Of a stretch of DNA of 15,494 bases, positions 13-15,494 are shown one piece after another. Source of the DNA: a virus (Duplodnaviria > Heunggongvirae > Uroviricota > Caudoviricetes); the IMG/VR virus record IMGVR_UViG_2568526635_000004, positions 1-15,494 of that record. One strand, given 5' to 3'. Below the pieces are notes generated by a model that ran no database searches, was not told where the DNA came from, and worked only from the letters and a program-made list of their open reading frames with translations. Position 1 is the first letter of the stretch, and each line of letters opens with the position of its first letter. The position numbers were made by a program, and so were the translations under genes.

Positions 13-88
13 CCTCAAAACTGACCACACAACTGACCACACATTTCGTTGAAGCTCTACGAACAACGACGAACAATAACAAACAAAA
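13..88. repeat. Left copy of ~76-bp imperfect direct repeat flanking the element (putative attL); contains internal tandem CTGACCACACA x2 and GAACAA motifs phased at 10 bp
   Basis: Sequence 13-88 reappears at 15320-15397 with 2 substitutions and a 2-nt A-run length difference; every gene of the element lies between the two copies. Confidence 0.7.
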
Positions 89-364
89 GGGAAATTTGCT
101 GGCGGTTTTGCTTAACCGTTATCATTTTCCGGCTATCCGCCATGAAGCTGGTGGATGTTTTTTCTATGCAGATTTGCATAGTTTCAAATGGGGTTGGTCG
201 TTATGGGAATTCCCATATCGGCATCACGCCCACCAGCGTGAAGTATTTTTGTAATTTCGCGGGTGTAAAAATTTGACGAGGCGGGCGGTCCCATAAGCAA
301 TAGGTTGTAGGGATTTCGATCCCCCTCCTGAATGCAATTTTTCGTATATATATATACAAAACAG

Positions 365-6449: not shown

Positions 6450-7619
6450 CTAGCCAGCTTTCATTTCCAGAATTTTGATGGCGTTTGAATCCACCACACC
6501 ACCGCCCAGATATTTATCCGTGTGGACCTTGTAGAATCCGGGTTCAGTAATGTTGTCCGGTCGGGTGCGAATCCCTGTTACATGATCAACGATGAAATAA
6601 CCACGACTGAAATCGCCAACCGCTAGCGGTGCTTTTCCTGCGCCGATGTCCGGCATGGACTCCAGGCAGTAAACAGGACGACCAAGCAACATATCCGGCG
6701 CACCTTCTTTAAGGCTGTCGCGCCAGATATAATCGCCGTTCTCATTTTTCAGCTTCTGTAGTGTCCCTGCCGTGCCCGAGTTCATCACCCAGACGGCATT
6801 TTTGCGGTATTTCGCTTTCAGCTTGTAGAGAATGTCGATCAGTTCGTCCGCTGTAATGGCGGTTCCACTTGCCGCTACCATTTTTTCAATGGTGCCAAAA
6901 GCGCGGGTTTTGTCACTGGTCGCCGCACGGGTGTAAGCCATGAAGCCTTTCGGCTTGCCGTTACCGTCGCCATTAACAAAATCATCCTCTTCGGTGCTGA
7001 CGAACGTGTCGGCAATTTCGGAGGATAACCAGCCCAGAATATCCACCTCTGAAAAATCCAGGATTTCCTGCGTGGTTTTCGGGTAGGCGTAGATCGGATT
7101 CAGCTTGATGGTTACGCGTTCAATTTTCGGGGTGTTGGTTTCACTGCGTGCGCTGCCTTCTGTGCCTCGTCCTACAGTTGCGCCGCCAGTGGAAACCAGT
7201 TTCTGAAACTCATTTGATTTTGCGGTCTTCACGGTCGCGATCACGCGCATAACACTGTCATCCTGTAGCTGGCGCATGACTTCGCGATCGAGCTCAGGAA
7301 TTACGGTATATCCGCCATCCCTGCCGCTGTCAGTGCTGGTGGACAGTGATCGCACATCTCCGGTTACGATGTAGTTACGCAATTCATCAGATGATAATTT
7401 CTGGATGCCCGTTCCTGGCTTGCTGCGTTCTTCATCAGCCACAGACTCGAGGCGGGAAATTTCTGTGTCGAGAGAATCGGCTTTTGCACGCAGTTCATCA
7501 AACTGTTTGCCCTCGTCATCGTTCAGGCTGCGGTTTTCACTGTCGGCTTTTTCCAGCAGGGATCGCATCTGGTTTTTCAGGGCGGTTTTTTGCTGGCGGA
7601 GTTCGATTAATTTCTTCAT
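6450..7619 (-). CDS. HK97-fold major capsid protein with N-terminal coiled-coil scaffold (delta-like) domain
   Basis: 389-aa ORF; charged coiled-coil-like N-terminal ~100 aa followed by MCP-like body and a C-terminus typical of HK97 capsid proteins. Confidence 0.92.
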   Translation of the reverse strand: MKKLIELRQQKTALKNQMRSLLEKADSENRSLNDDEGKQFDELRAKADSLDTEISRLESVADEERSKPGTGIQKLSSDELRNYIVTGDVRSLSTSTDSGRDGGYTVIPELDREVMRQLQDDSVMRVIATVKTAKSNEFQKLVSTGGATVGRGTEGSARSETNTPKIERVTIKLNPIYAYPKTTQEILDFSEVDILGWLSSEIADTFVSTEEDDFVNGDGNGKPKGFMAYTRAATSDKTRAFGTIEKMVAASGTAITADELIDILYKLKAKYRKNAVWVMNSGTAGTLQKLKNENGDYIWRDSLKEGAPDMLLGRPVYCLESMPDIGAGKAPLAVGDFSRGYFIVDHVTGIRTRPDNITEPGFYKVHTDKYLGGGVVDSNAIKILEMKAG

Positions 7620-7689
7620 GAAGGTTTTCTCGTATTGGTTAAGATTCAGGACGTGAAACCAACACGGAGGGAGCGCCGCCCGACACTCT

Positions 7690-7839
7690 CGGCATCTCGC
7701 AGATCAACCCGGCATCGCGCAGGGGGTCAGGCGGCATTGTGGCGGCTCACGTCTGAGTGCCACACGCCAACATATACATAAAAATCAGTATGTAAACATC
7801 AGCCAGAATCACCGAACAATCTGGAACAACCGCGAACAA
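7690..7839. promoter_or_regulatory. Regulatory region upstream of the head operon: direct repeat CGGCATC(T/G)CGCAG x2 (7690-7702, 7710-7722), dyad TGTGGC-N15-GCCACA (7738-7764) and three GAACAA motifs at exact 10-bp phasing (7814, 7824, 7834)
   Basis: Repeats read directly from the sequence; the region lies between the upstream operon terminator and the capsid start codon. Confidence 0.45.
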
Positions 7840-7856
7840 ATAATTTACAAAACCTG

Positions 7857-7884
7857 AAAAAAAGACCCGGGGTAAATCCGGGCC
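7857..7884 (-). terminator. Rho-independent terminator ending the replication/early operon
   Basis: On the minus strand: 7-bp stem GGCCCGG/CCGGGUC with a 7-nt loop followed by 7 U residues; 10 nt downstream of the 82-aa ORF stop. Confidence 0.75.
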
Positions 7885-7893
7885 TTTATCGCT

Positions 7894-8159: not shown

Positions 8160-8582
8160 CTAAAAGGGTATGTTATCCCCGTATGGATCATCATTCCCCG
8201 CCTGTTGCTTAGCCCTATTTAGAGCGTCAGTAGCCTGGCCCTGCTGGCCTTTTTTGCCACCAGGTCGCGCCGTTCTGGCACTGATTACGCTGTCTGCGAT
8301 AACCTGCCAGCCCTGCCGCGTTTCCCCGTTCTGGCCTGTCCACTGGCTTACCTGCATGTTACCCGCCACGCTCACCAGCTCGCCTTTGTGGTGTTTTGCC
8401 AGTGCGTCGGCCTGTCTGCCAAACGCCAGAACGGATAACCACATCGTCGCCTGTCCGTCATCTGCCTGATTGCACGGCAGGGGGACAGCCATGCTTGCCA
8501 TAGCCATTTGTGTGCCCTTGCTGGTGGTCTTTAACTGCGGGTCAGCCACCAGCCGCCCGTAAGCTGCTATCTGTGCTGTCAT
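8160..8582 (-). CDS. ssb: Single-stranded DNA-binding protein-like (SSB-like) with acidic C-terminal tail
   Basis: 140-aa ORF with OB-fold-like layout, Gly/Gln-rich linker and a C-terminal DDPYGDNIPF resembling the canonical SSB DDDIPF tail; GGAGAA Shine-Dalgarno. Confidence 0.7.
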   Translation of the reverse strand: MTAQIAAYGRLVADPQLKTTSKGTQMAMASMAVPLPCNQADDGQATMWLSVLAFGRQADALAKHHKGELVSVAGNMQVSQWTGQNGETRQGWQVIADSVISARTARPGGKKGQQGQATDALNRAKQQAGNDDPYGDNIPF

Positions 8583-8646
8583 GCTGTCTGTTCTCCGGTT
8601 TTAACGTTGATAGTTACGCTTGTTTACACCCTTACGGTGAAATTCT

Positions 8647-8769
8647 GCGGGTTATAATCGCACTTTTGCGGGTTATAACTGCCGTTTTGCGGGTTACGTG
8701 CGGGTTATTGATTTCCTTTTTATTCATACAGTTAATGCACTTACACACAGGATAACCCGCATAACCCGC
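8647..8769. repeat. Origin-like iteron array: 4 forward GCGGGTTA copies (8647, 8668, 8689, 8700; 21/21/11-bp spacing), AT-rich spacer, 2 tandem inverted copies (8753-8760, 8762-8769)
   Basis: Exact repeats counted in the sequence; located immediately downstream of the primase/helicase gene, with the AT-rich segment 8709-8750 between the arms. Confidence 0.7.
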
Positions 8770-8793
8770 AACTTTTCACCTCACACAGGGGAG

Positions 8794-10917
8794 TTAATCT
8801 TCTGCCTCAGGCTGGAACATCATCACGTAAAAAACATGCTGCTTACCCCCAATTTTGCCGAGCGCCTTTTTCTTGTAACGGCGATCGTTACCCGCTTCCA
8901 GCATTCCGGCAGCACTCAACGCGCGGGCAAAGTGGGATGGGTTAAATCCCTGTGCGATCTCCCCCTCAAACACATGAGGAAACGTGTAAAAACGGAACTC
9001 ATCATCTTCATTTCTGATACTCCCCTTTCTGTATCCGGCAAGGTCTTTAATCGGTAAATCACGCTCGTCGGTGTTGGGCCACGGAAGGTATCTGCTGAAT
9101 CCGAACGACGCTAAAAAAGCCTCTGCCTGTTCAACCATCTGTTTAAACTCCCTGTTACCCGTGCCGAACTCCTTCACCCAGGCATTAAAATTATGCTGAA
9201 TGGCATCGCGGCATTCCTGCTCATTCCAGCCAGTAACATGACCGGAAAGCACAAGCGCGGCCTCCAGTATGGCGAAACGCTCACCCACGCGGTGGACCTG
9301 CTCGCCGTAGCTCTCCGGTATCAGGTTGCGCCACCGTTCACGGCATGCCCTTACCATGTCCTTTGCCTCCTGCTGGTGGTCTGCCAGCCATTTAACCCAC
9401 TCACGCCCCGCCGCCCCGTGATTTTCTGTCCAGGCATCTTTTAACGCGTCTGCGTGCGCCTTTCCGGTGCTGTATTCGTGAAATTGTGTGGCTTTTTCCA
9501 TCGGCACGTTAAGCAGGCGGACAAGCTGCCCCGCCTTGACTTTTATCCCCTCCGTTTTGAGGAATGTTTCAACGTCCATTTCTCCGGTACTGATTGCCAC
9601 CGTTCGCCAGTGTTTTATCTCCCTGTTGCCGCCGTCCTTCGCCCCCTGTAATTTCCCGGAACCGTTAAACAGCGTATAAGCAGACGTTGACACCTCCCGC
9701 GCGTTTCCGGCCTGGCCTATTTCATCCAGGGGTAACAGCCCGTCGTTGTGTGCCTCTGCCTCGTTGGCGATACCTAACGCTGTGCCGTACCAGGTCAGCC
9801 GCTGCGCGTCCGGCTCTCCCCATAAACTTGATGCGATGTTCTGCGTTGTGGTCTTACCTGCCGATGACTGTTCGAAAAGATGTACCCCGAAGCCGTCAGC
9901 ACCCACCAGCCCGATTAATGGTGCGGATAGCGATACCGCCACACCCAGCATCATGGACGGATTACCACCAGCCAGTCGCGCCACACTGTCGCGCCAGCCC
10001 TCCGCCGTTCCTGCCACGGAATAACCATTAACGGCAGCCGTTTTTCCGGTAAACAGGACTGGCTTTTCGCAATCACCAATGACCGAACCGTCCGGCATGA
10101 TGTACGCGCCAAAATGCCAGCCCGTTGTTGTGCTTAACTGCCATTCCTCATGGTTTCCGCTTAACTGCATCCAGTCAGCCAGGATAGCCCTGTATTTACC
10201 GTTGGTTGTCACGTTCAGTCCGTGGTCTTTCAGCAGCCGCCAGCCGTCACGGTCGCCAATGCCACCGCACGGAACCGCCATCGTGATGACTTCATGGTTT
10301 GCTGGCTTTTTCCAGCGCATCACGCGGTAATGCTCTTTGCCGATTGTCCCCGTTCCCAGTAGCTCAAGCGGGGAGCATAACCACGTTTCAGGCCGGATAA
10401 TTTCGCCTGACTGCTTATCCACTTTTGGCGTTACCCAGAAAACACCATCGGCGCGGCTTTCAACGCGGGGCTTTAATTCATCATCACCCGGGCTTTCTGT
10501 GATTTTTTTCTTTAAGGGCAACACCAGACTTTCCCCGCGCTCGTATTCGTCTTTGAGGCGAGGCAACTGGTCGGATAAATCCGCCGGGCTGGTGTCAGTT
10601 ATCCCCGCGTATTCGTATACGGTCTTCACGCCAGCCACAGCCAGCAACGTGACGATCTGTGTGAGGCTACGTTCAGTGATGTGCCCTGCGCGGTAAATAC
10701 GCACACACTGACGGCTATCATCAATAATTTGATAACCGGTAATATCTTTCAGGTGTTCATCTGACAGAACGACAGGCGGCACATTGTCGGCGGCAATATG
10801 CTTACCTGCCCATTCCTGCCACTCTTTCGCATGGCTCCACGCATCACTACCCGCAAAGATGATAACCTCCGTCATTTTGTCGGCTGGCTGGTGCTTTAAG
10901 TTTGGTGCGCGCTTCAT
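8794..10917 (-). CDS. Replication initiation protein, primase/helicase type (P4 alpha-like, Walker A GKT)
   Basis: 707-aa ORF with a central P-loop (FEQSSAGKTTT) and large flanking domains; ATG at 10917 with GGGGAAAGG Shine-Dalgarno, ATGA overlap with the upstream ORF; the exact family was not verified. Confidence 0.8.
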   Translation of the reverse strand: MKRAPNLKHQPADKMTEVIIFAGSDAWSHAKEWQEWAGKHIAADNVPPVVLSDEHLKDITGYQIIDDSRQCVRIYRAGHITERSLTQIVTLLAVAGVKTVYEYAGITDTSPADLSDQLPRLKDEYERGESLVLPLKKKITESPGDDELKPRVESRADGVFWVTPKVDKQSGEIIRPETWLCSPLELLGTGTIGKEHYRVMRWKKPANHEVITMAVPCGGIGDRDGWRLLKDHGLNVTTNGKYRAILADWMQLSGNHEEWQLSTTTGWHFGAYIMPDGSVIGDCEKPVLFTGKTAAVNGYSVAGTAEGWRDSVARLAGGNPSMMLGVAVSLSAPLIGLVGADGFGVHLFEQSSAGKTTTQNIASSLWGEPDAQRLTWYGTALGIANEAEAHNDGLLPLDEIGQAGNAREVSTSAYTLFNGSGKLQGAKDGGNREIKHWRTVAISTGEMDVETFLKTEGIKVKAGQLVRLLNVPMEKATQFHEYSTGKAHADALKDAWTENHGAAGREWVKWLADHQQEAKDMVRACRERWRNLIPESYGEQVHRVGERFAILEAALVLSGHVTGWNEQECRDAIQHNFNAWVKEFGTGNREFKQMVEQAEAFLASFGFSRYLPWPNTDERDLPIKDLAGYRKGSIRNEDDEFRFYTFPHVFEGEIAQGFNPSHFARALSAAGMLEAGNDRRYKKKALGKIGGKQHVFYVMMFQPEAED

Positions 10918-12776: not shown

Positions 12777-13001
12777 TTACGCTGCCTTGCCTGAATTAAT
12801 GCGATCCCGGCTTTTAACCCATTCCATAACCTCGGACAGCAGCCAACCTACAGAACGACCGCCCAGATTAAGACGTGACGGAAAGCATCCTTTTTTCTCC
12901 AGTTCGTAGCGTGTAGTGCGGCACACTCCTGTTAACTTACGGCATTCATCCTCACGGATTACGCGATCTGATAGTGATTGCGATTGTTTGAGTTGGTTCA
13001 T
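12777..13001 (-). CDS. alpA: AlpA-family transcriptional regulator (excisionase-like helix-turn-helix)
   Basis: SDRVIREDECRKLTGVCRTTRYELEKKGCFPSRLNLGGRSVGWLLSEVMEWV matches the AlpA/phage regulatory protein pattern; ATG at 13001 has a GAGGG Shine-Dalgarno (the ORF track extends to 13037). Confidence 0.85.
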   Translation of the reverse strand: MNQLKQSQSLSDRVIREDECRKLTGVCRTTRYELEKKGCFPSRLNLGGRSVGWLLSEVMEWVKSRDRINSGKAA

Positions 13002-13079
13002 ATAAAAACGCCCTCGTTCGTTATCGTTCGAGAGCATTTTTTATGAGAGAAAATAGGTAAGCAATAAACAAAAAAATAA

Positions 13080-14075
13080 TTATTTTTCTTTATTTATTTT
13101 GTATTCGCTAAGTAATTTATAAATTTTAGGTCTAATTTTTTCTAAAAATGGTATAACTGTTTGTTCAAGCCCGAAACCATCACGCTCACCATTGGGATAA
13201 ATCATGGATGCAAGAACACGCTTTGGGACTCTTCTTTTTGTTCCAAATGTATAAAACTTAGCCAACATCAATAAATCCATAAGCGGTATAATTTTATATT
13301 TTATTATTCTCTCTCTCAAATATCCCCATGCCCGTTTGGGTTCAGGCTCTTCTAAATTGAGTTCTTTTCTCCATATCGGTAATAATTTTTTTAAATCAGA
13401 TAATATCTCATCATCTGTTTTTGTAATATCAAGTGACAAGTGCATTGCATAAGAAAAGCCTTCACTATTAGACTTCATCAATTCAGGCGCAACTGCACTT
13501 AAACTCTCATTTGCCAAAGTAAATAGAAGTTCATCATCATACTCAGATAAATAATCGACATCTTCAGAGCTCAACAATAATGTGCGCTCAGTTCCTGCAC
13601 CCGATGATGGTTTTTTCCAAACATAATTTTCAAGCATTATTCTTCGCAAAGGGACTACGGTTCGAGTTGATGATAACATATGAGGAAAAAAACCTTTATA
13701 CAGTTCTTTTCTTATGTTTTTTTCATAAAACGAATAGTCCGCACCAATATCATCGCCAATAACTGAAGATGCAAATATCTTTCTAAACCGACCAGAAACA
13801 AAAGCAATCTCAGTTTCTATTGATGGAATTTTTGAATTAATAATATCTTTTGTCTCATTCTCATCTTCTGGCAAACTCCTTACATCGATAAAATTCTCAT
13901 ACAAATAAGCCATAAAGTGTTCTTCATCTTCTACAACAAACCCCTTTATAAATCTGTTGTAATCCTCTCTACGCATTAACTGAGTAATCAATTCAAAATC
14001 ACTCATATCGGTAAAAACTTCATACTTCCCCAAATTAAAGCCCAATGCTTCTGCAAAATTTTTAAAAGAAATCAT
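13080..14075 (-). CDS. Hypothetical 331-aa cargo protein, strongly AT-rich, unknown function
   Basis: Uninterrupted ORF whose ATG overlaps the integrase stop (ATGA at 14072-14075); nucleotide composition visibly far more AT-rich than the rest of the element; no recognisable catalytic motif by eye. Confidence 0.8.
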   Translation of the reverse strand: MISFKNFAEALGFNLGKYEVFTDMSDFELITQLMRREDYNRFIKGFVVEDEEHFMAYLYENFIDVRSLPEDENETKDIINSKIPSIETEIAFVSGRFRKIFASSVIGDDIGADYSFYEKNIRKELYKGFFPHMLSSTRTVVPLRRIMLENYVWKKPSSGAGTERTLLLSSEDVDYLSEYDDELLFTLANESLSAVAPELMKSNSEGFSYAMHLSLDITKTDDEILSDLKKLLPIWRKELNLEEPEPKRAWGYLRERIIKYKIIPLMDLLMLAKFYTFGTKRRVPKRVLASMIYPNGERDGFGLEQTVIPFLEKIRPKIYKLLSEYKINKEK

Positions 14076-15292
14076 TTGCTAACCTTCAAAATAACAACAT
14101 TTTCATTATTACCAACTAACACATCGAGACGTTCAACCCATAGATTCAGAGCGTCCCGCTTCGCCTGTAAATAGCGTGAATGGTTATAGGTTTTTTGCTG
14201 ACCAGGCATCTGATGCGCTGTGATGTGCTCCACGATATGCGGATCGACACCTAAATCGTTCAGCATCGTTGTAAACGTGTGGCGAAAGTCATGCAGCGTC
14301 CAGTGTTCCTGGTTAAGCCGCTTATGCGCATTTCGCCCATATTGCGCTACCGTGGTATCTTTTTTCAGTTCTCCGAGTAACAACCCTGTATGCCGGTTCT
14401 GCTCCACCAGCTTCTGAATGAACGGCAAAATGCCATCGGGTATTGGCCTGAATATCGTTACCTTCGTTTTGCTGTGCTCTTTTGGCACTGTCCACAACAT
14501 TTCTTTCAGATCCCATTCTTTGATCTCTGAAAGTCTGACCTCTGCCGTTCTGCACCCGAACACAATCAGCAAGCGCATTAACGCGCTGTAGTAAGGCGCG
14601 AACACATCACCATCAATAGCGCGTAAAATTTCCTTTAATTCGCTGTTGCTGTGCACCCTCTCGCGAATTTCTGCTCTCTTACCCACATCGCTGACGATCA
14701 AATCGTCCAGGGCATTACTGAACGCGTAGCGCCTCCTGCGGCAGAACTTTAGCGCCTGTTTGCAGGTTTGCATGACGTGCCCTGCTGCTACTGGTGCTTT
14801 TTTTCGTACACGGTCAAAACATGCGATCCACTGCCTTGTATCGCATTTATCAAGAGGAATTGCCCCTATATGGCAAATGATGTGCTTATCCATACGTTGC
14901 ACCAGCTTTATGTAGTCTTTGCGGTTATCCTTCGCGTATTCCTCCAGCCAGTAGTTAATCGCCTCCTTTACCGTAACGGGTTTTAGTGATTCCTGTACTG
15001 TGGCGCACAACTCATAACGGGGGTTTTTACCCTCAGCCAGCCATGCCCGGCACTGTGTGCGTTTTTCCCTTGCGGCTTTCAGCGACAATTCCGGATAAGC
15101 CCCCAACTTTAGCCGCTCAGCGGCAACCTCACGGCCTCCCGTTCGATACCGGAAATACCAGGTTAATTTGCCGCCCTTTGAGTGTTTAATCTCCAGCCCG
15201 CCCCCGTCGGAGTAAAAACGCTCTTTTTCTGCCTGGACAGCCGCTAATTTTTTTAACGTCGAATCGCTCAGTTTGTTTAGTGCTTTTCCCAC
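14072..15292 (-). CDS. int: Tyrosine recombinase / integrase, P4 type (N-terminal arm-binding domain plus catalytic domain)
   Basis: 406-aa ORF; N-terminus LSDSTLKKL...GGLEIKHSKGGKLTWYFRYR typical of P4-like integrase arm-binding domains; catalytic HDFRHTF and C-terminal Tyr region; GTG start at 15292 with AAGAGGA Shine-Dalgarno; adjacent to the right direct repeat. Confidence 0.93.
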   Translation of the reverse strand: MGKALNKLSDSTLKKLAAVQAEKERFYSDGGGLEIKHSKGGKLTWYFRYRTGGREVAAERLKLGAYPELSLKAAREKRTQCRAWLAEGKNPRYELCATVQESLKPVTVKEAINYWLEEYAKDNRKDYIKLVQRMDKHIICHIGAIPLDKCDTRQWIACFDRVRKKAPVAAGHVMQTCKQALKFCRRRRYAFSNALDDLIVSDVGKRAEIRERVHSNSELKEILRAIDGDVFAPYYSALMRLLIVFGCRTAEVRLSEIKEWDLKEMLWTVPKEHSKTKVTIFRPIPDGILPFIQKLVEQNRHTGLLLGELKKDTTVAQYGRNAHKRLNQEHWTLHDFRHTFTTMLNDLGVDPHIVEHITAHQMPGQQKTYNHSRYLQAKRDALNLWVERLDVLVGNNENVVILKVSK

Positions 15293-15319: not shown

Positions 15320-15397
15320 CCTCAAAAAACTGACCACACAACTGACCACACATTTTGTTGAAGCTCTACGAACAACGACGAACAACAACAAACAAGA
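15320..15397. repeat. Right copy of the ~76-bp imperfect direct repeat (putative attR), immediately upstream of int
   Basis: See left copy at 13-88. Confidence 0.7.
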
Positions 15398-15494
15398 AAA
15401 CACAATAATACAATATATATCAAATACATACACAAACAACCACGAACAAACCCGAACTGCAAAAAACACTAAATGAGAAAATACGGGTATTTCT

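Follow-up and report, generated by a model that had tools for sequence, protein, structure and literature searches.

AlpA is the master switch of the phage-inducible chromosomal islands (PICIs) of Gram-negative bacteria. The subject here is one such island, held in a 15,494-nucleotide stretch of Caudoviricetes DNA (IMG/VR record IMGVR_UViG_2568526635_000004; "the window" below means this whole stretch), which is a capsid-forming PICI (cf-PICI) of the EcCIEDL933 type. Hexamers GAACAA, or TTGTTC in the orientation of the genes, recur at exact 10-bp intervals upstream of its capsid gene and in both arms of its attachment (att) site. These hexamers would form operator arrays for AlpA, so that a single protein both excises the island and switches on capsid synthesis; comparison of sequences puts the probability of this reading at about 60%. 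In the literature searched, neither the DNA target of AlpA nor its route to the capsid genes of cf-PICIs is described, and no AlpA operator sequence has been described for PICIs. The analysis offers a candidate operator, built of phased TTGTTC units, together with a defined promoter at fixed geometry.

The original prediction had pointed to a direct repeat, a dyad and three GAACAA hexamers upstream of the capsid gene, and all three elements lie where it had placed them. The hexamers start at 7814, 7824 and 7834, reading TTGTTC x3 in gene orientation with an exact 10-bp phase. Lone copies of GAACAA are not enriched in the window (13 found, 10.8 expected). For the phased pair GAACAA-N4-GAACAA with at most one mismatch, 7 matches are found against 0.15 expected, and none of 200 shuffled sequences reaches 7; all matches are on the plus strand, at 61-86, 7814-7839, 15370-15395 and 15434-15449. 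A three-unit score with a threshold of at least 14/18, at which 0.29 three-unit windows are expected, picks out four clusters only, at 7839-7804, 96-51, 15405-15360 and 15469-15424. Phased arrays in the window are confined to the att arms and the capsid promoter, in a single orientation. The phasing that had been claimed inside both attachment repeats is real, with two amendments: the arrays have three to five units, the third being AAACAA, and there is an extra array at 15424-15469. The operators of recombination directionality factors (RDFs) are direct repeats one helical turn apart, bound with low specificity and high cooperativity, and some RDFs regulate promoters far from att (PMC7498355, PMC3936717); the arrays found here share this form, their repeats all pointing the same way at a spacing of about one helical turn (exactly 10 bp, three to five units per array). 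They are as follows.

7814..7839, minus strand: capsid-promoter array of three TTGTTC units, the proposed AlpA operator (phased-pair and three-unit scans)
15360..15405, minus strand: int-proximal arm, proximal array TTGTGT, TTGTTT, TTGTTC, TTGTTC, AGCTTC in 10-bp phase, within a 70-mer
15424..15469, minus strand: second, distal array of the int-proximal arm, with the 70-mer on one side and the core on the other, kept in the related island L001 and other loci
51..96, minus strand: array of the other att arm, within the second copy of the 70-mer

An equivalent of the array at 15360..15405 is present upstream of int in 13 other genera-level loci.

At the capsid gene, the array belongs to a control region of constant layout, whose parts are given here in the order in which RNA polymerase would meet them.

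7857..7887, minus strand: intrinsic terminator of an upstream 82-aa open reading frame (ORF), stem GGCCCGG/CCGGGUC followed by U7, fold -15.9 kcal/mol
7840..7851, minus strand: invariant box TTTGTAAATTAT, directly upstream of unit 1, a single exact copy in the window
7813-7797, minus strand: 17-nt spacer between unit 3 and the -35 element, constant across variants
7769..7796, minus strand: predicted sigma-70 promoter, with -35 TTTACA at 7796-7791, a 16-nt spacer at 7790-7775 and -10 TATGTT at 7774-7769

The terminator was not listed by a simple scan of the window; the equivalent position in L001 and L015 also holds one. The box is found in essentially all 96 unique upstream variants, irrespective of the type of unit that follows, and in 92 of the 96 it stands 86-87 nt from the leader hairpin described below. 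The -10 is TATCTT in 51 variants and TATGTT in 24 (83 for TATCTT, TATGTT and TATATT together), and the -35, weak to very weak, is TTTACT, TTTTCT or TTTACA in 74. The order and spacing of box, three units, 17 nt, -35, 16 nt and -10 are fixed in 92/96 unique variants. Transcription is predicted to start near 7762, which would centre the units at about -55, -65 and -75 and place the array at about -52 to -77.

This layout recurs in 13 islands from other genera of the Enterobacterales, in several more E. coli islands and in 120 or more IMG/VR contigs. Islands of the EDL933 type have an unrelated 5' untranslated region (UTR), yet retain the box, and with it a perfect triplet whose spacers differ; a triplet with altered spacers is kept in L001, L015-L017 and L021 despite an unrelated downstream UTR. 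The spacer upstream of the capsid gene is matched in 524 E. coli genomes, in most of which only the ~50 nt of box and triplet match. Read across these sequences, box and triplet make a clear phylogenetic footprint, which points to an upstream element held at fixed geometry on a weak promoter. A phage database searched with the control region returned 3 partial matches only, at least one of them in a cf-PICI-sized record; the region is therefore not a general late-promoter element of phages.

Which protein reads the units is suggested by their co-variation with the excision factor in a comparison set of about 150 related islands. Capsid array and int-proximal arm array change type together, and in step with the family to which the encoded excision factor belongs. 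Besides the TTGTTC type there is a TAC type, whose arrays resemble TTATACCTgaTTCTACCTcaTATTACCT. The capsid arrays are distributed as follows.

62/74-aa AlpA loci (IMG/VR): TTGTTC-type 13, TAC-type 0, other 0
Loci with an excisionase-family (TIGR01764) protein only: TTGTTC-type 1 (box mis-registered), TAC-type 9, other 1
94-aa AlpA loci: TTGTTC-type 21, TAC-type 8, other 4

The first two rows differ with a Fisher p of 1.2e-5, not corrected for ancestry. The arms follow the same division: islands with a 62/74-aa AlpA have TTGTTC-type arrays at both arm and capsid promoter, and excisionase-only islands that use a tRNA-Ile integrase have arms with TACC/TACT units repeated exactly every 10 bp, beside GGTATCCTATAGGTATCC. 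In one island (L102) TACC-x3 sites occur at just two places in 10.6 kb, the arm and the capsid promoter. Arm class equals capsid class in 28 of the 31 loci that have a clear capsid class and both sites readable (p = 0.002). One island, L002, encodes both proteins; its arm has a TAC array and its capsid promoter TTGTTC x3. An unbiased search over 7 kb upstream for ORF clusters associated with array class found none that beats the RDF, the top cluster being the excisionase-family protein. For AlpA of the 94-aa lineage, unit type correlates with a Ser/Thr exchange where the recognition helix begins (SRSS, 5/8 TAC; SRST, 0/13; p = 0.003; exception L139), a co-variation that is suggestive only.

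In TAC-type lineages (e.g., L027, L051, L073 and L092) the 17 nt from unit 3 to the -35 consist of a GC-rich palindrome and a T-run (CCCCTGTCTCTGATGGGGG-TTTTCTTT); this resembles a terminator, and it overlaps a very weak -35 (TTTTCT).

The window also encodes a candidate reader.

12777..13001, minus strand: alpA, 74 aa from the ATG at 13001, the proposed reader of the arrays (PF05930, 1.6e-15)

The helix-turn-helix (HTH) and wing of AlpA are invariant across homologues, and its nearest solved structure is the GIsul2 excisionase 8c3t (sequence match, E = 6.8e-8). It is assigned to the excisionase type because of this relation and its PF05930 match; a Foldseek search with the AlpA model returned only the sequence relative 8c3t, with a non-significant E-value. 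The element encodes a probable cognate RDF, a small and putatively winged-HTH protein (PF05930; related to 8c3t), and, as in systems of the Cox, Apl and Vis type, it carries similar arrays at promoter and arms; here both switch with the RDF family. It had been proposed that one protein, such as AlpA or the integrase, may serve both the att arms and the head-operon region; the AlpA half of the proposal is strengthened by the switching of array types with the excision-factor family, and the integrase half is undercut by a separate int-linked 11-12-mer.

Published experiments speak to the same assignment. AlpA produced from pBAD activates PalpA-lacZ of EcCICFT073 and not Pint-lacZ (Fillol-Salom et al., PMC6092414). 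By primer mapping, the PalpA insert corresponds to 8128-8583 of L020 (E. coli CFT073) and includes a six-unit GAACAA array at 8186-8251; the only promoter-like site in it lies ~180 bp from the array. Islands of the EDL933/CFT073 type have an inverted array of four to six units in the int-alpA spacer (L016 16249-16294, L015 9684-9709), and the window-type island, with DUF6387 between int and alpA, is without a clear array there. Among cf-PICIs, alpA is required for induction and transfer (10.1101/2022.09.08.507074), and reproduction of EcCIEDL933 for purification was driven in an alpA-overexpressing strain (10.1101/2025.02.11.637232). Capsids of cf-PICIs form when no helper phage is present (10.1101/2025.02.11.637232), so a helper-encoded activator is not needed. 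Classical PICIs with lambda-type capsid-remodelling genes (L020 14209-14462, L145 5744-5960) have arrays in their arms and none before the capsid genes; the promoter array is therefore a feature of cf-PICIs.

Two other candidate activators were considered and rejected. A helper-phage activator is ruled out by the helper-free capsids and by the reproduction of EcCIEDL933 driven by alpA overexpression (10.1101/2025.02.11.637232). The 82-aa ORF upstream of the control region is unrelated to its counterpart in O157 islands, annotated as PerC family (a spurious 25% identity), and its position is held elsewhere by PerC-like or divergent cargo genes while the triplet persists.

If AlpA reads the arrays, the switch could work in the manner of other RDFs. 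AlpA monomers would bind head-to-tail on the phased units, one per helical turn. In the arms, where the arrays stand between the core and putative arm-type 12-mers of the integrase (Int), AlpA would bend the DNA and shape the excisive complex; at the capsid promoter, an AlpA filament at -52 to -77 would activate by contacting RNA polymerase or by wrapping DNA. Induction of alpA would then couple excision with capsid production. Binding that is weakly specific and nucleates at the best unit would account for the degenerate units 2 and 3 of many lineages. We infer the binding of AlpA to the units, activation rather than repression and the position of the transcription start.

Several observations weigh against this reading. 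The Pint insert (~6623-7469) contains the arm array of EcCICFT073, yet does not respond to AlpA (PMC6092414); an array alone is therefore insufficient for activation. The co-variation statistics ignore shared ancestry and linkage, and the correlation is broken by the 94-aa AlpA lineage, with its mixture of TTGTTC and TAC capsid arrays. L027 (TAC) and L139 (TTGTTC-type) have identical AlpA HTHs and different array types; L027 and L039 have near-identical arms and different capsid-promoter arrays. Islands with two RDFs, such as L002, are rare (3 of 5426 genomes), and L002 may have arisen as a chimera only recently. The box does not vary with RDF class, and may be read by something else or act via DNA shape. 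The AlphaFold model of AlpA is poor (predicted local distance difference test score 63).

Some of these observations would suit the view, on the whole unlikely, that another factor reads the capsid array: a packaging-linked protein, a host protein that binds the box, or curved T-rich DNA without any protein, the resemblance to the att arms being a general property of phased T-rich DNA. The invariance of the box, the degeneracy of units 2 and 3 in many lineages, the TAC-type capsid arrays that L027 and L092 combine with TTGTTC-type arms, and the L027/L139 pair all favour it. Set against them are the agreement of array class with RDF family at both sites (13/0 versus 1/9; 28/31 concordant), the finding that the RDF is outdone in co-variation by none of the ORF clusters in the 7 kb upstream, and the lack of conservation of the gene directly upstream (82-aa ORF, PerC-like or divergent cargo). 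Alternatively, AlpA may bind the array and there repress or insulate, silencing the operon at high AlpA or blocking read-through from the replication operon. Most characterised regulation by RDFs is indeed repressive, e.g., by 186 Apl at pR/pL, by P2 Cox at Pc, and by RDFs acting on int promoters (PMC7498355, PMC3936717), and a terminator stands immediately upstream of the array; but the array lies wholly upstream of a weak -35 at a fixed 17 bp, without overlapping the promoter, the strain that drove EcCIEDL933 reproduction was one overexpressing alpA (10.1101/2025.02.11.637232), and P2 Cox activates the satellite promoter P4 PLL from upstream sites (PMC3936717), which makes repression quite improbable.

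Recognition of the arrays by the N-terminal arm-binding domain of the integrase, at the arms and the capsid promoter alike, is very improbable. Int does have an Arm-DNA-bind_3 domain, and the arm-type sites of other phages are short direct repeats in both arms, where arrays are also found here. However, a separate pair of 11-12-mers adjoining int changes with integrase variant and family, the array-containing PalpA responds to AlpA alone in a plasmid system lacking int (PMC6092414), and integrases that are 41-66% identical and use different integration sites accompany the same TTGTTC triplet at the capsid promoter. That the likeness of promoter triplet and att array is chance or hitch-hiking, and without function, is scarcely credible: lone GAACAA hexamers are not enriched in the window, but the phased pattern exceeds expectation (7 versus 0.15), and its conservation across genera, with changed spacers and fixed geometry, effectively refutes the idea.

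The two remaining elements upstream of the capsid gene, the direct repeat (CGGCATCTCGCAG at 7690-7702 and CGGCATCGCGCAG at 7711-7723) and the dyad (TGTGGC at 7739-7744, 15 nt, GCCACA at 7760-7765), had been grouped with the hexamers; a role for them as protein-binding control elements of the same system is not supported. Both belong to the region downstream of the predicted promoter, where a structured 5' leader is conserved, and judging from the alignment they are parts of transcribed leader RNA (hairpin P1 and the interior of helix P2) rather than of an operator.

7739..7763, minus strand: P1 hairpin GUGGCACUCAGACGUGAGCCGCCAC, the predicted 5' end of the capsid mRNA, equivalent to the dyad (leader alignment)
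7675..7735, minus strand: P2 long-range helix GCCGCCUGAC / GUCGGGCGGC (RNAalifold)

Covariation was assessed in an alignment of 65 leaders. Both sub-stems of P1 have compensatory changes in the Serratia/Yersinia lineage (pair 5/23, GC to AU; pair 11/16, AU to CG; 6 sequences). P2 pairs window positions 7735-7726 with 7684-7675, and 9 of its 10 pairs show double, compensatory changes along with G-U intermediates. The direct repeat, CUGCG(C/A)GAUGCCG x2 in RNA sense, lies within a variable insert enclosed by P2, which in other lineages consists of two small hairpins, each with CUGCGAGA. The window leader has a minimum free energy of -54.7 kcal/mol (z = -2.8). An Rfam search found no family for it, the best hit being a sub-threshold rimP-leader (E = 0.48). 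The leader, ~145 nt long (7617-7764, minus strand), is present in at least 120 IMG/VR contigs from several genera and nearly absent from the phage database. As to its role, a 5'-terminal stabilising hairpin combined with a translational or processing element is our guess.

Leader and operator might also be parts of a single design. The control region would then be a modular cassette with an invariant box, units rewritten for each excision factor (TTGTTC for AlpA, TACC for the excisionase family) and an undescribed leader of ~145 nt adding control after initiation; this is possible, though doubtful. If it holds, exchange of operator units is how satellites rewire the control of their late genes, and the leader represents a cis-regulatory RNA of a new class, confined to this kind of satellite.

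The anatomy of the att site has to be redrawn. The 70-nt repeats at 17-86 and 15326-15395 had been called the attachment repeats, but they are not the core homologous to attB. The 70-mer is confined to island-bearing genomes (76 of 5426 complete E. coli genomes), each with two or more copies, and no genome has the single copy expected of an empty site. In empty-site genomes the chromosomal matches to the left and right of the related island L001 share an overlap of 14 bp (ATACGGGTATTTCT, window 15481-15494). It follows that this 14-bp sequence is the core and that each attP arm has one 70-mer as an arm repeat.

15481..15494, no strand assigned: att core ATACGGGTATTTCT, on the thiM riboswitch side (14-bp overlap in empty-site genomes)
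15328..15352, minus strand, with a second copy at 19-43: 2x 12-mer GTGTGGTCAGTT in gene orientation, adjoining the int start, a putative Int arm-type site

Each 70-mer carries the 2x 12-mer and, next to it, TTGTTy units in phase, three to five in number. The repeated 11-12-mer beside int varies with the integrase variant and is GGTATCCTATAGGTATCC in islands with the tRNA-Ile integrase; because the motif changes with integrase family, it is the better candidate for the arm site of Int, and the 2x 12-mer of the window is probably such a site. From the outside inwards the arm reads core (15481-15494), arrays (15469-15360), 12-mers (15352-15328) and int start (15292), so the arrays have the location of RDF arrays. 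The right end of the window falls exactly at the att core; its left end starts ~50-60 nt inside the island arm, with the left core copy and part of the left arm lying outside.

The gene content places the island among the cf-PICIs: int, alpA and the primase gene are co-oriented at one end, the island has an HK97-type module of its own, and it is ~15 kb long with att repeats at one particular place in the chromosome, the thiM riboswitch. The window matches the published gene organisation of cf-PICIs, e.g., EcCIEDL933 (10.1101/2022.09.08.507074). Every long gene is encoded on the minus strand; the order is P4-type integrase, DUF6387, alpA, Ash-like, DUF4222, DUF927 primase, SSB and the 82-aa ORF, followed by a 274-nt spacer and then capsid, protease, portal, connector, HNH, terS and terL, each of these seven with a Pfam match. 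The packaging module is 60-93% identical to that of O157 islands, and the island is missing from most E. coli genomes.

14072..15292, minus strand: P4-type tyrosine integrase with an arm-binding N-domain (PF13356, Arm-DNA-bind_3, and PF00589)
8794-10917, minus strand: DUF927 primase (Pfam)
6450..7619, minus strand: HK97-type major capsid gene, first of the packaging operon, ATG at 7619 (Pfam)

Four smaller features of the island deserve a record. Just before the alpA ATG is a terminator-like hairpin, GCTCTCG-N12-CGAGGGC followed by GTTTTTAT (12984-13040, minus strand), which is kept in L050 and L122. Together with the first alpA codons, it is spanned by a set of weak units.

12984..13029, minus strand: tentative inverted phased units GAACGA, GAACGA, one blank position, GAACCA, AAACAA (weak, 2 mismatches each)

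Hairpin and weak units could have a bearing on the induction of alpA by a helper or on its autoregulation; in E. coli PICIs, AlpA positively autoregulates alpA (PMC6092414, PMC7498355, PMC11773190). At 14072-14075, ATGA joins the integrase stop codon to the start codon of DUF6387; an ATGA overlap with int is also found in iolg ("integrase-overlapping gene"), which is required for excision of the PICMI satellites of Vibrio (PMC10803314). Downstream of terL, a 44-nt repeat (CCAG..CCCCAATGGGGG..ATCAACGGGTTAG) is present in 3-4 copies, at 802-845, 927-961, 1210-1253 and 1264-1307; L001 has five copies (1603-2158), similar units are found at the right end of EcCICFT073, and the repeats may be cos or terminase-binding elements. 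Finally, TGCGGGTTAT / ATAACCCGCA recur as direct and inverted copies at 365-382, 483-520, 8636-8655, 8686-8709 and 8753-8780, clustering directly 3' of the primase gene and near the left end. L001 and L002 have related pairs in the corresponding position; these repeats may be iterons of a replication origin.

Should AlpA prove to read the arrays, one induced protein would excise the island and turn on its capsid genes, which would explain why cf-PICI capsids form without a helper. The motif could improve the annotation of att arms and late promoters in cf-PICI satellites, and the switch between TTGTTC and TACC would be a natural specificity swap.

Several well-studied excision factors offer parallels. 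P2 Cox is, as AlpA would be, a small winged-HTH excision factor. Its targets are arrays of direct repeats spaced by about a helical turn; cox boxes occur in P2 attP, at Pe-Pc and upstream of PLL of the satellite P4, whose late transcription Cox activates (PMC3936717). Unlike AlpA, Cox is encoded by the helper and acts in trans; in the window the satellite itself encodes the proposed factor, whose target would be the capsid and packaging operon; the cox box TTAAAG/CNCA is unrelated to TTGTTC, and AlpA (PF05930) is no homologue of Cox by sequence. The 186 Apl protein is likewise a dual-purpose RDF, whose five to seven direct repeats, 10-11 bp apart, lie at att as well as in a distant promoter region (PMC7498355). 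Its weak site specificity, strong cooperativity and spreading (PMC7498355) would account for the degenerate units 2 and 3 seen here. By contrast, Apl represses pR/pL from sites between the promoters, and the array in the window stands upstream of a single promoter, in a geometry suggesting activation. In lambda, the Xis sites X1-X1.5-X2 hold three head-to-tail monomers at ~10-bp spacing and bend the att arm (PMC7498355), as would the arrays here; Xis acts on one arm only and has no known role at late promoters, while the present arrays are in both arms and at a promoter.

The namesake from Pseudomonas aeruginosa is a Q-like antiterminator, a large protein with an N-terminal segment for the exit channel of RNA polymerase. 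It shares with the AlpA of the window the name, a C-terminal HTH and the switching-on of a lysis or late-type operon, but contacts DNA through residues 128-142 at a single GGGACG element placed between the -35 and the -10, and is loaded on RNA polymerase during a sigma-dependent pause (PMC9371919). Its antitermination model was considered and rejected for the window, where AlpA has only 74 aa and the repeats are upstream of the -35 (PMC9371919).

A last parallel comes from AlpA-family proteins of satellites and islands: P4 Vis, CP4-57 AlpA and EcCICFT073 AlpA belong to the same family as the window AlpA and are reported to be needed for excision and to regulate transcription (PMC6092414, PMC7498355, PMC11773190). 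The classical islands EcCICFT073 and L145 have arm arrays, the former also an array in the alpA promoter region, and unlike cf-PICIs have none before their capsid-remodelling genes. On these comparisons, the system of the window would be one of the dual-role RDF kind, distinguished by an array that matches its RDF and stands at fixed geometry before the satellite's own capsid operon.

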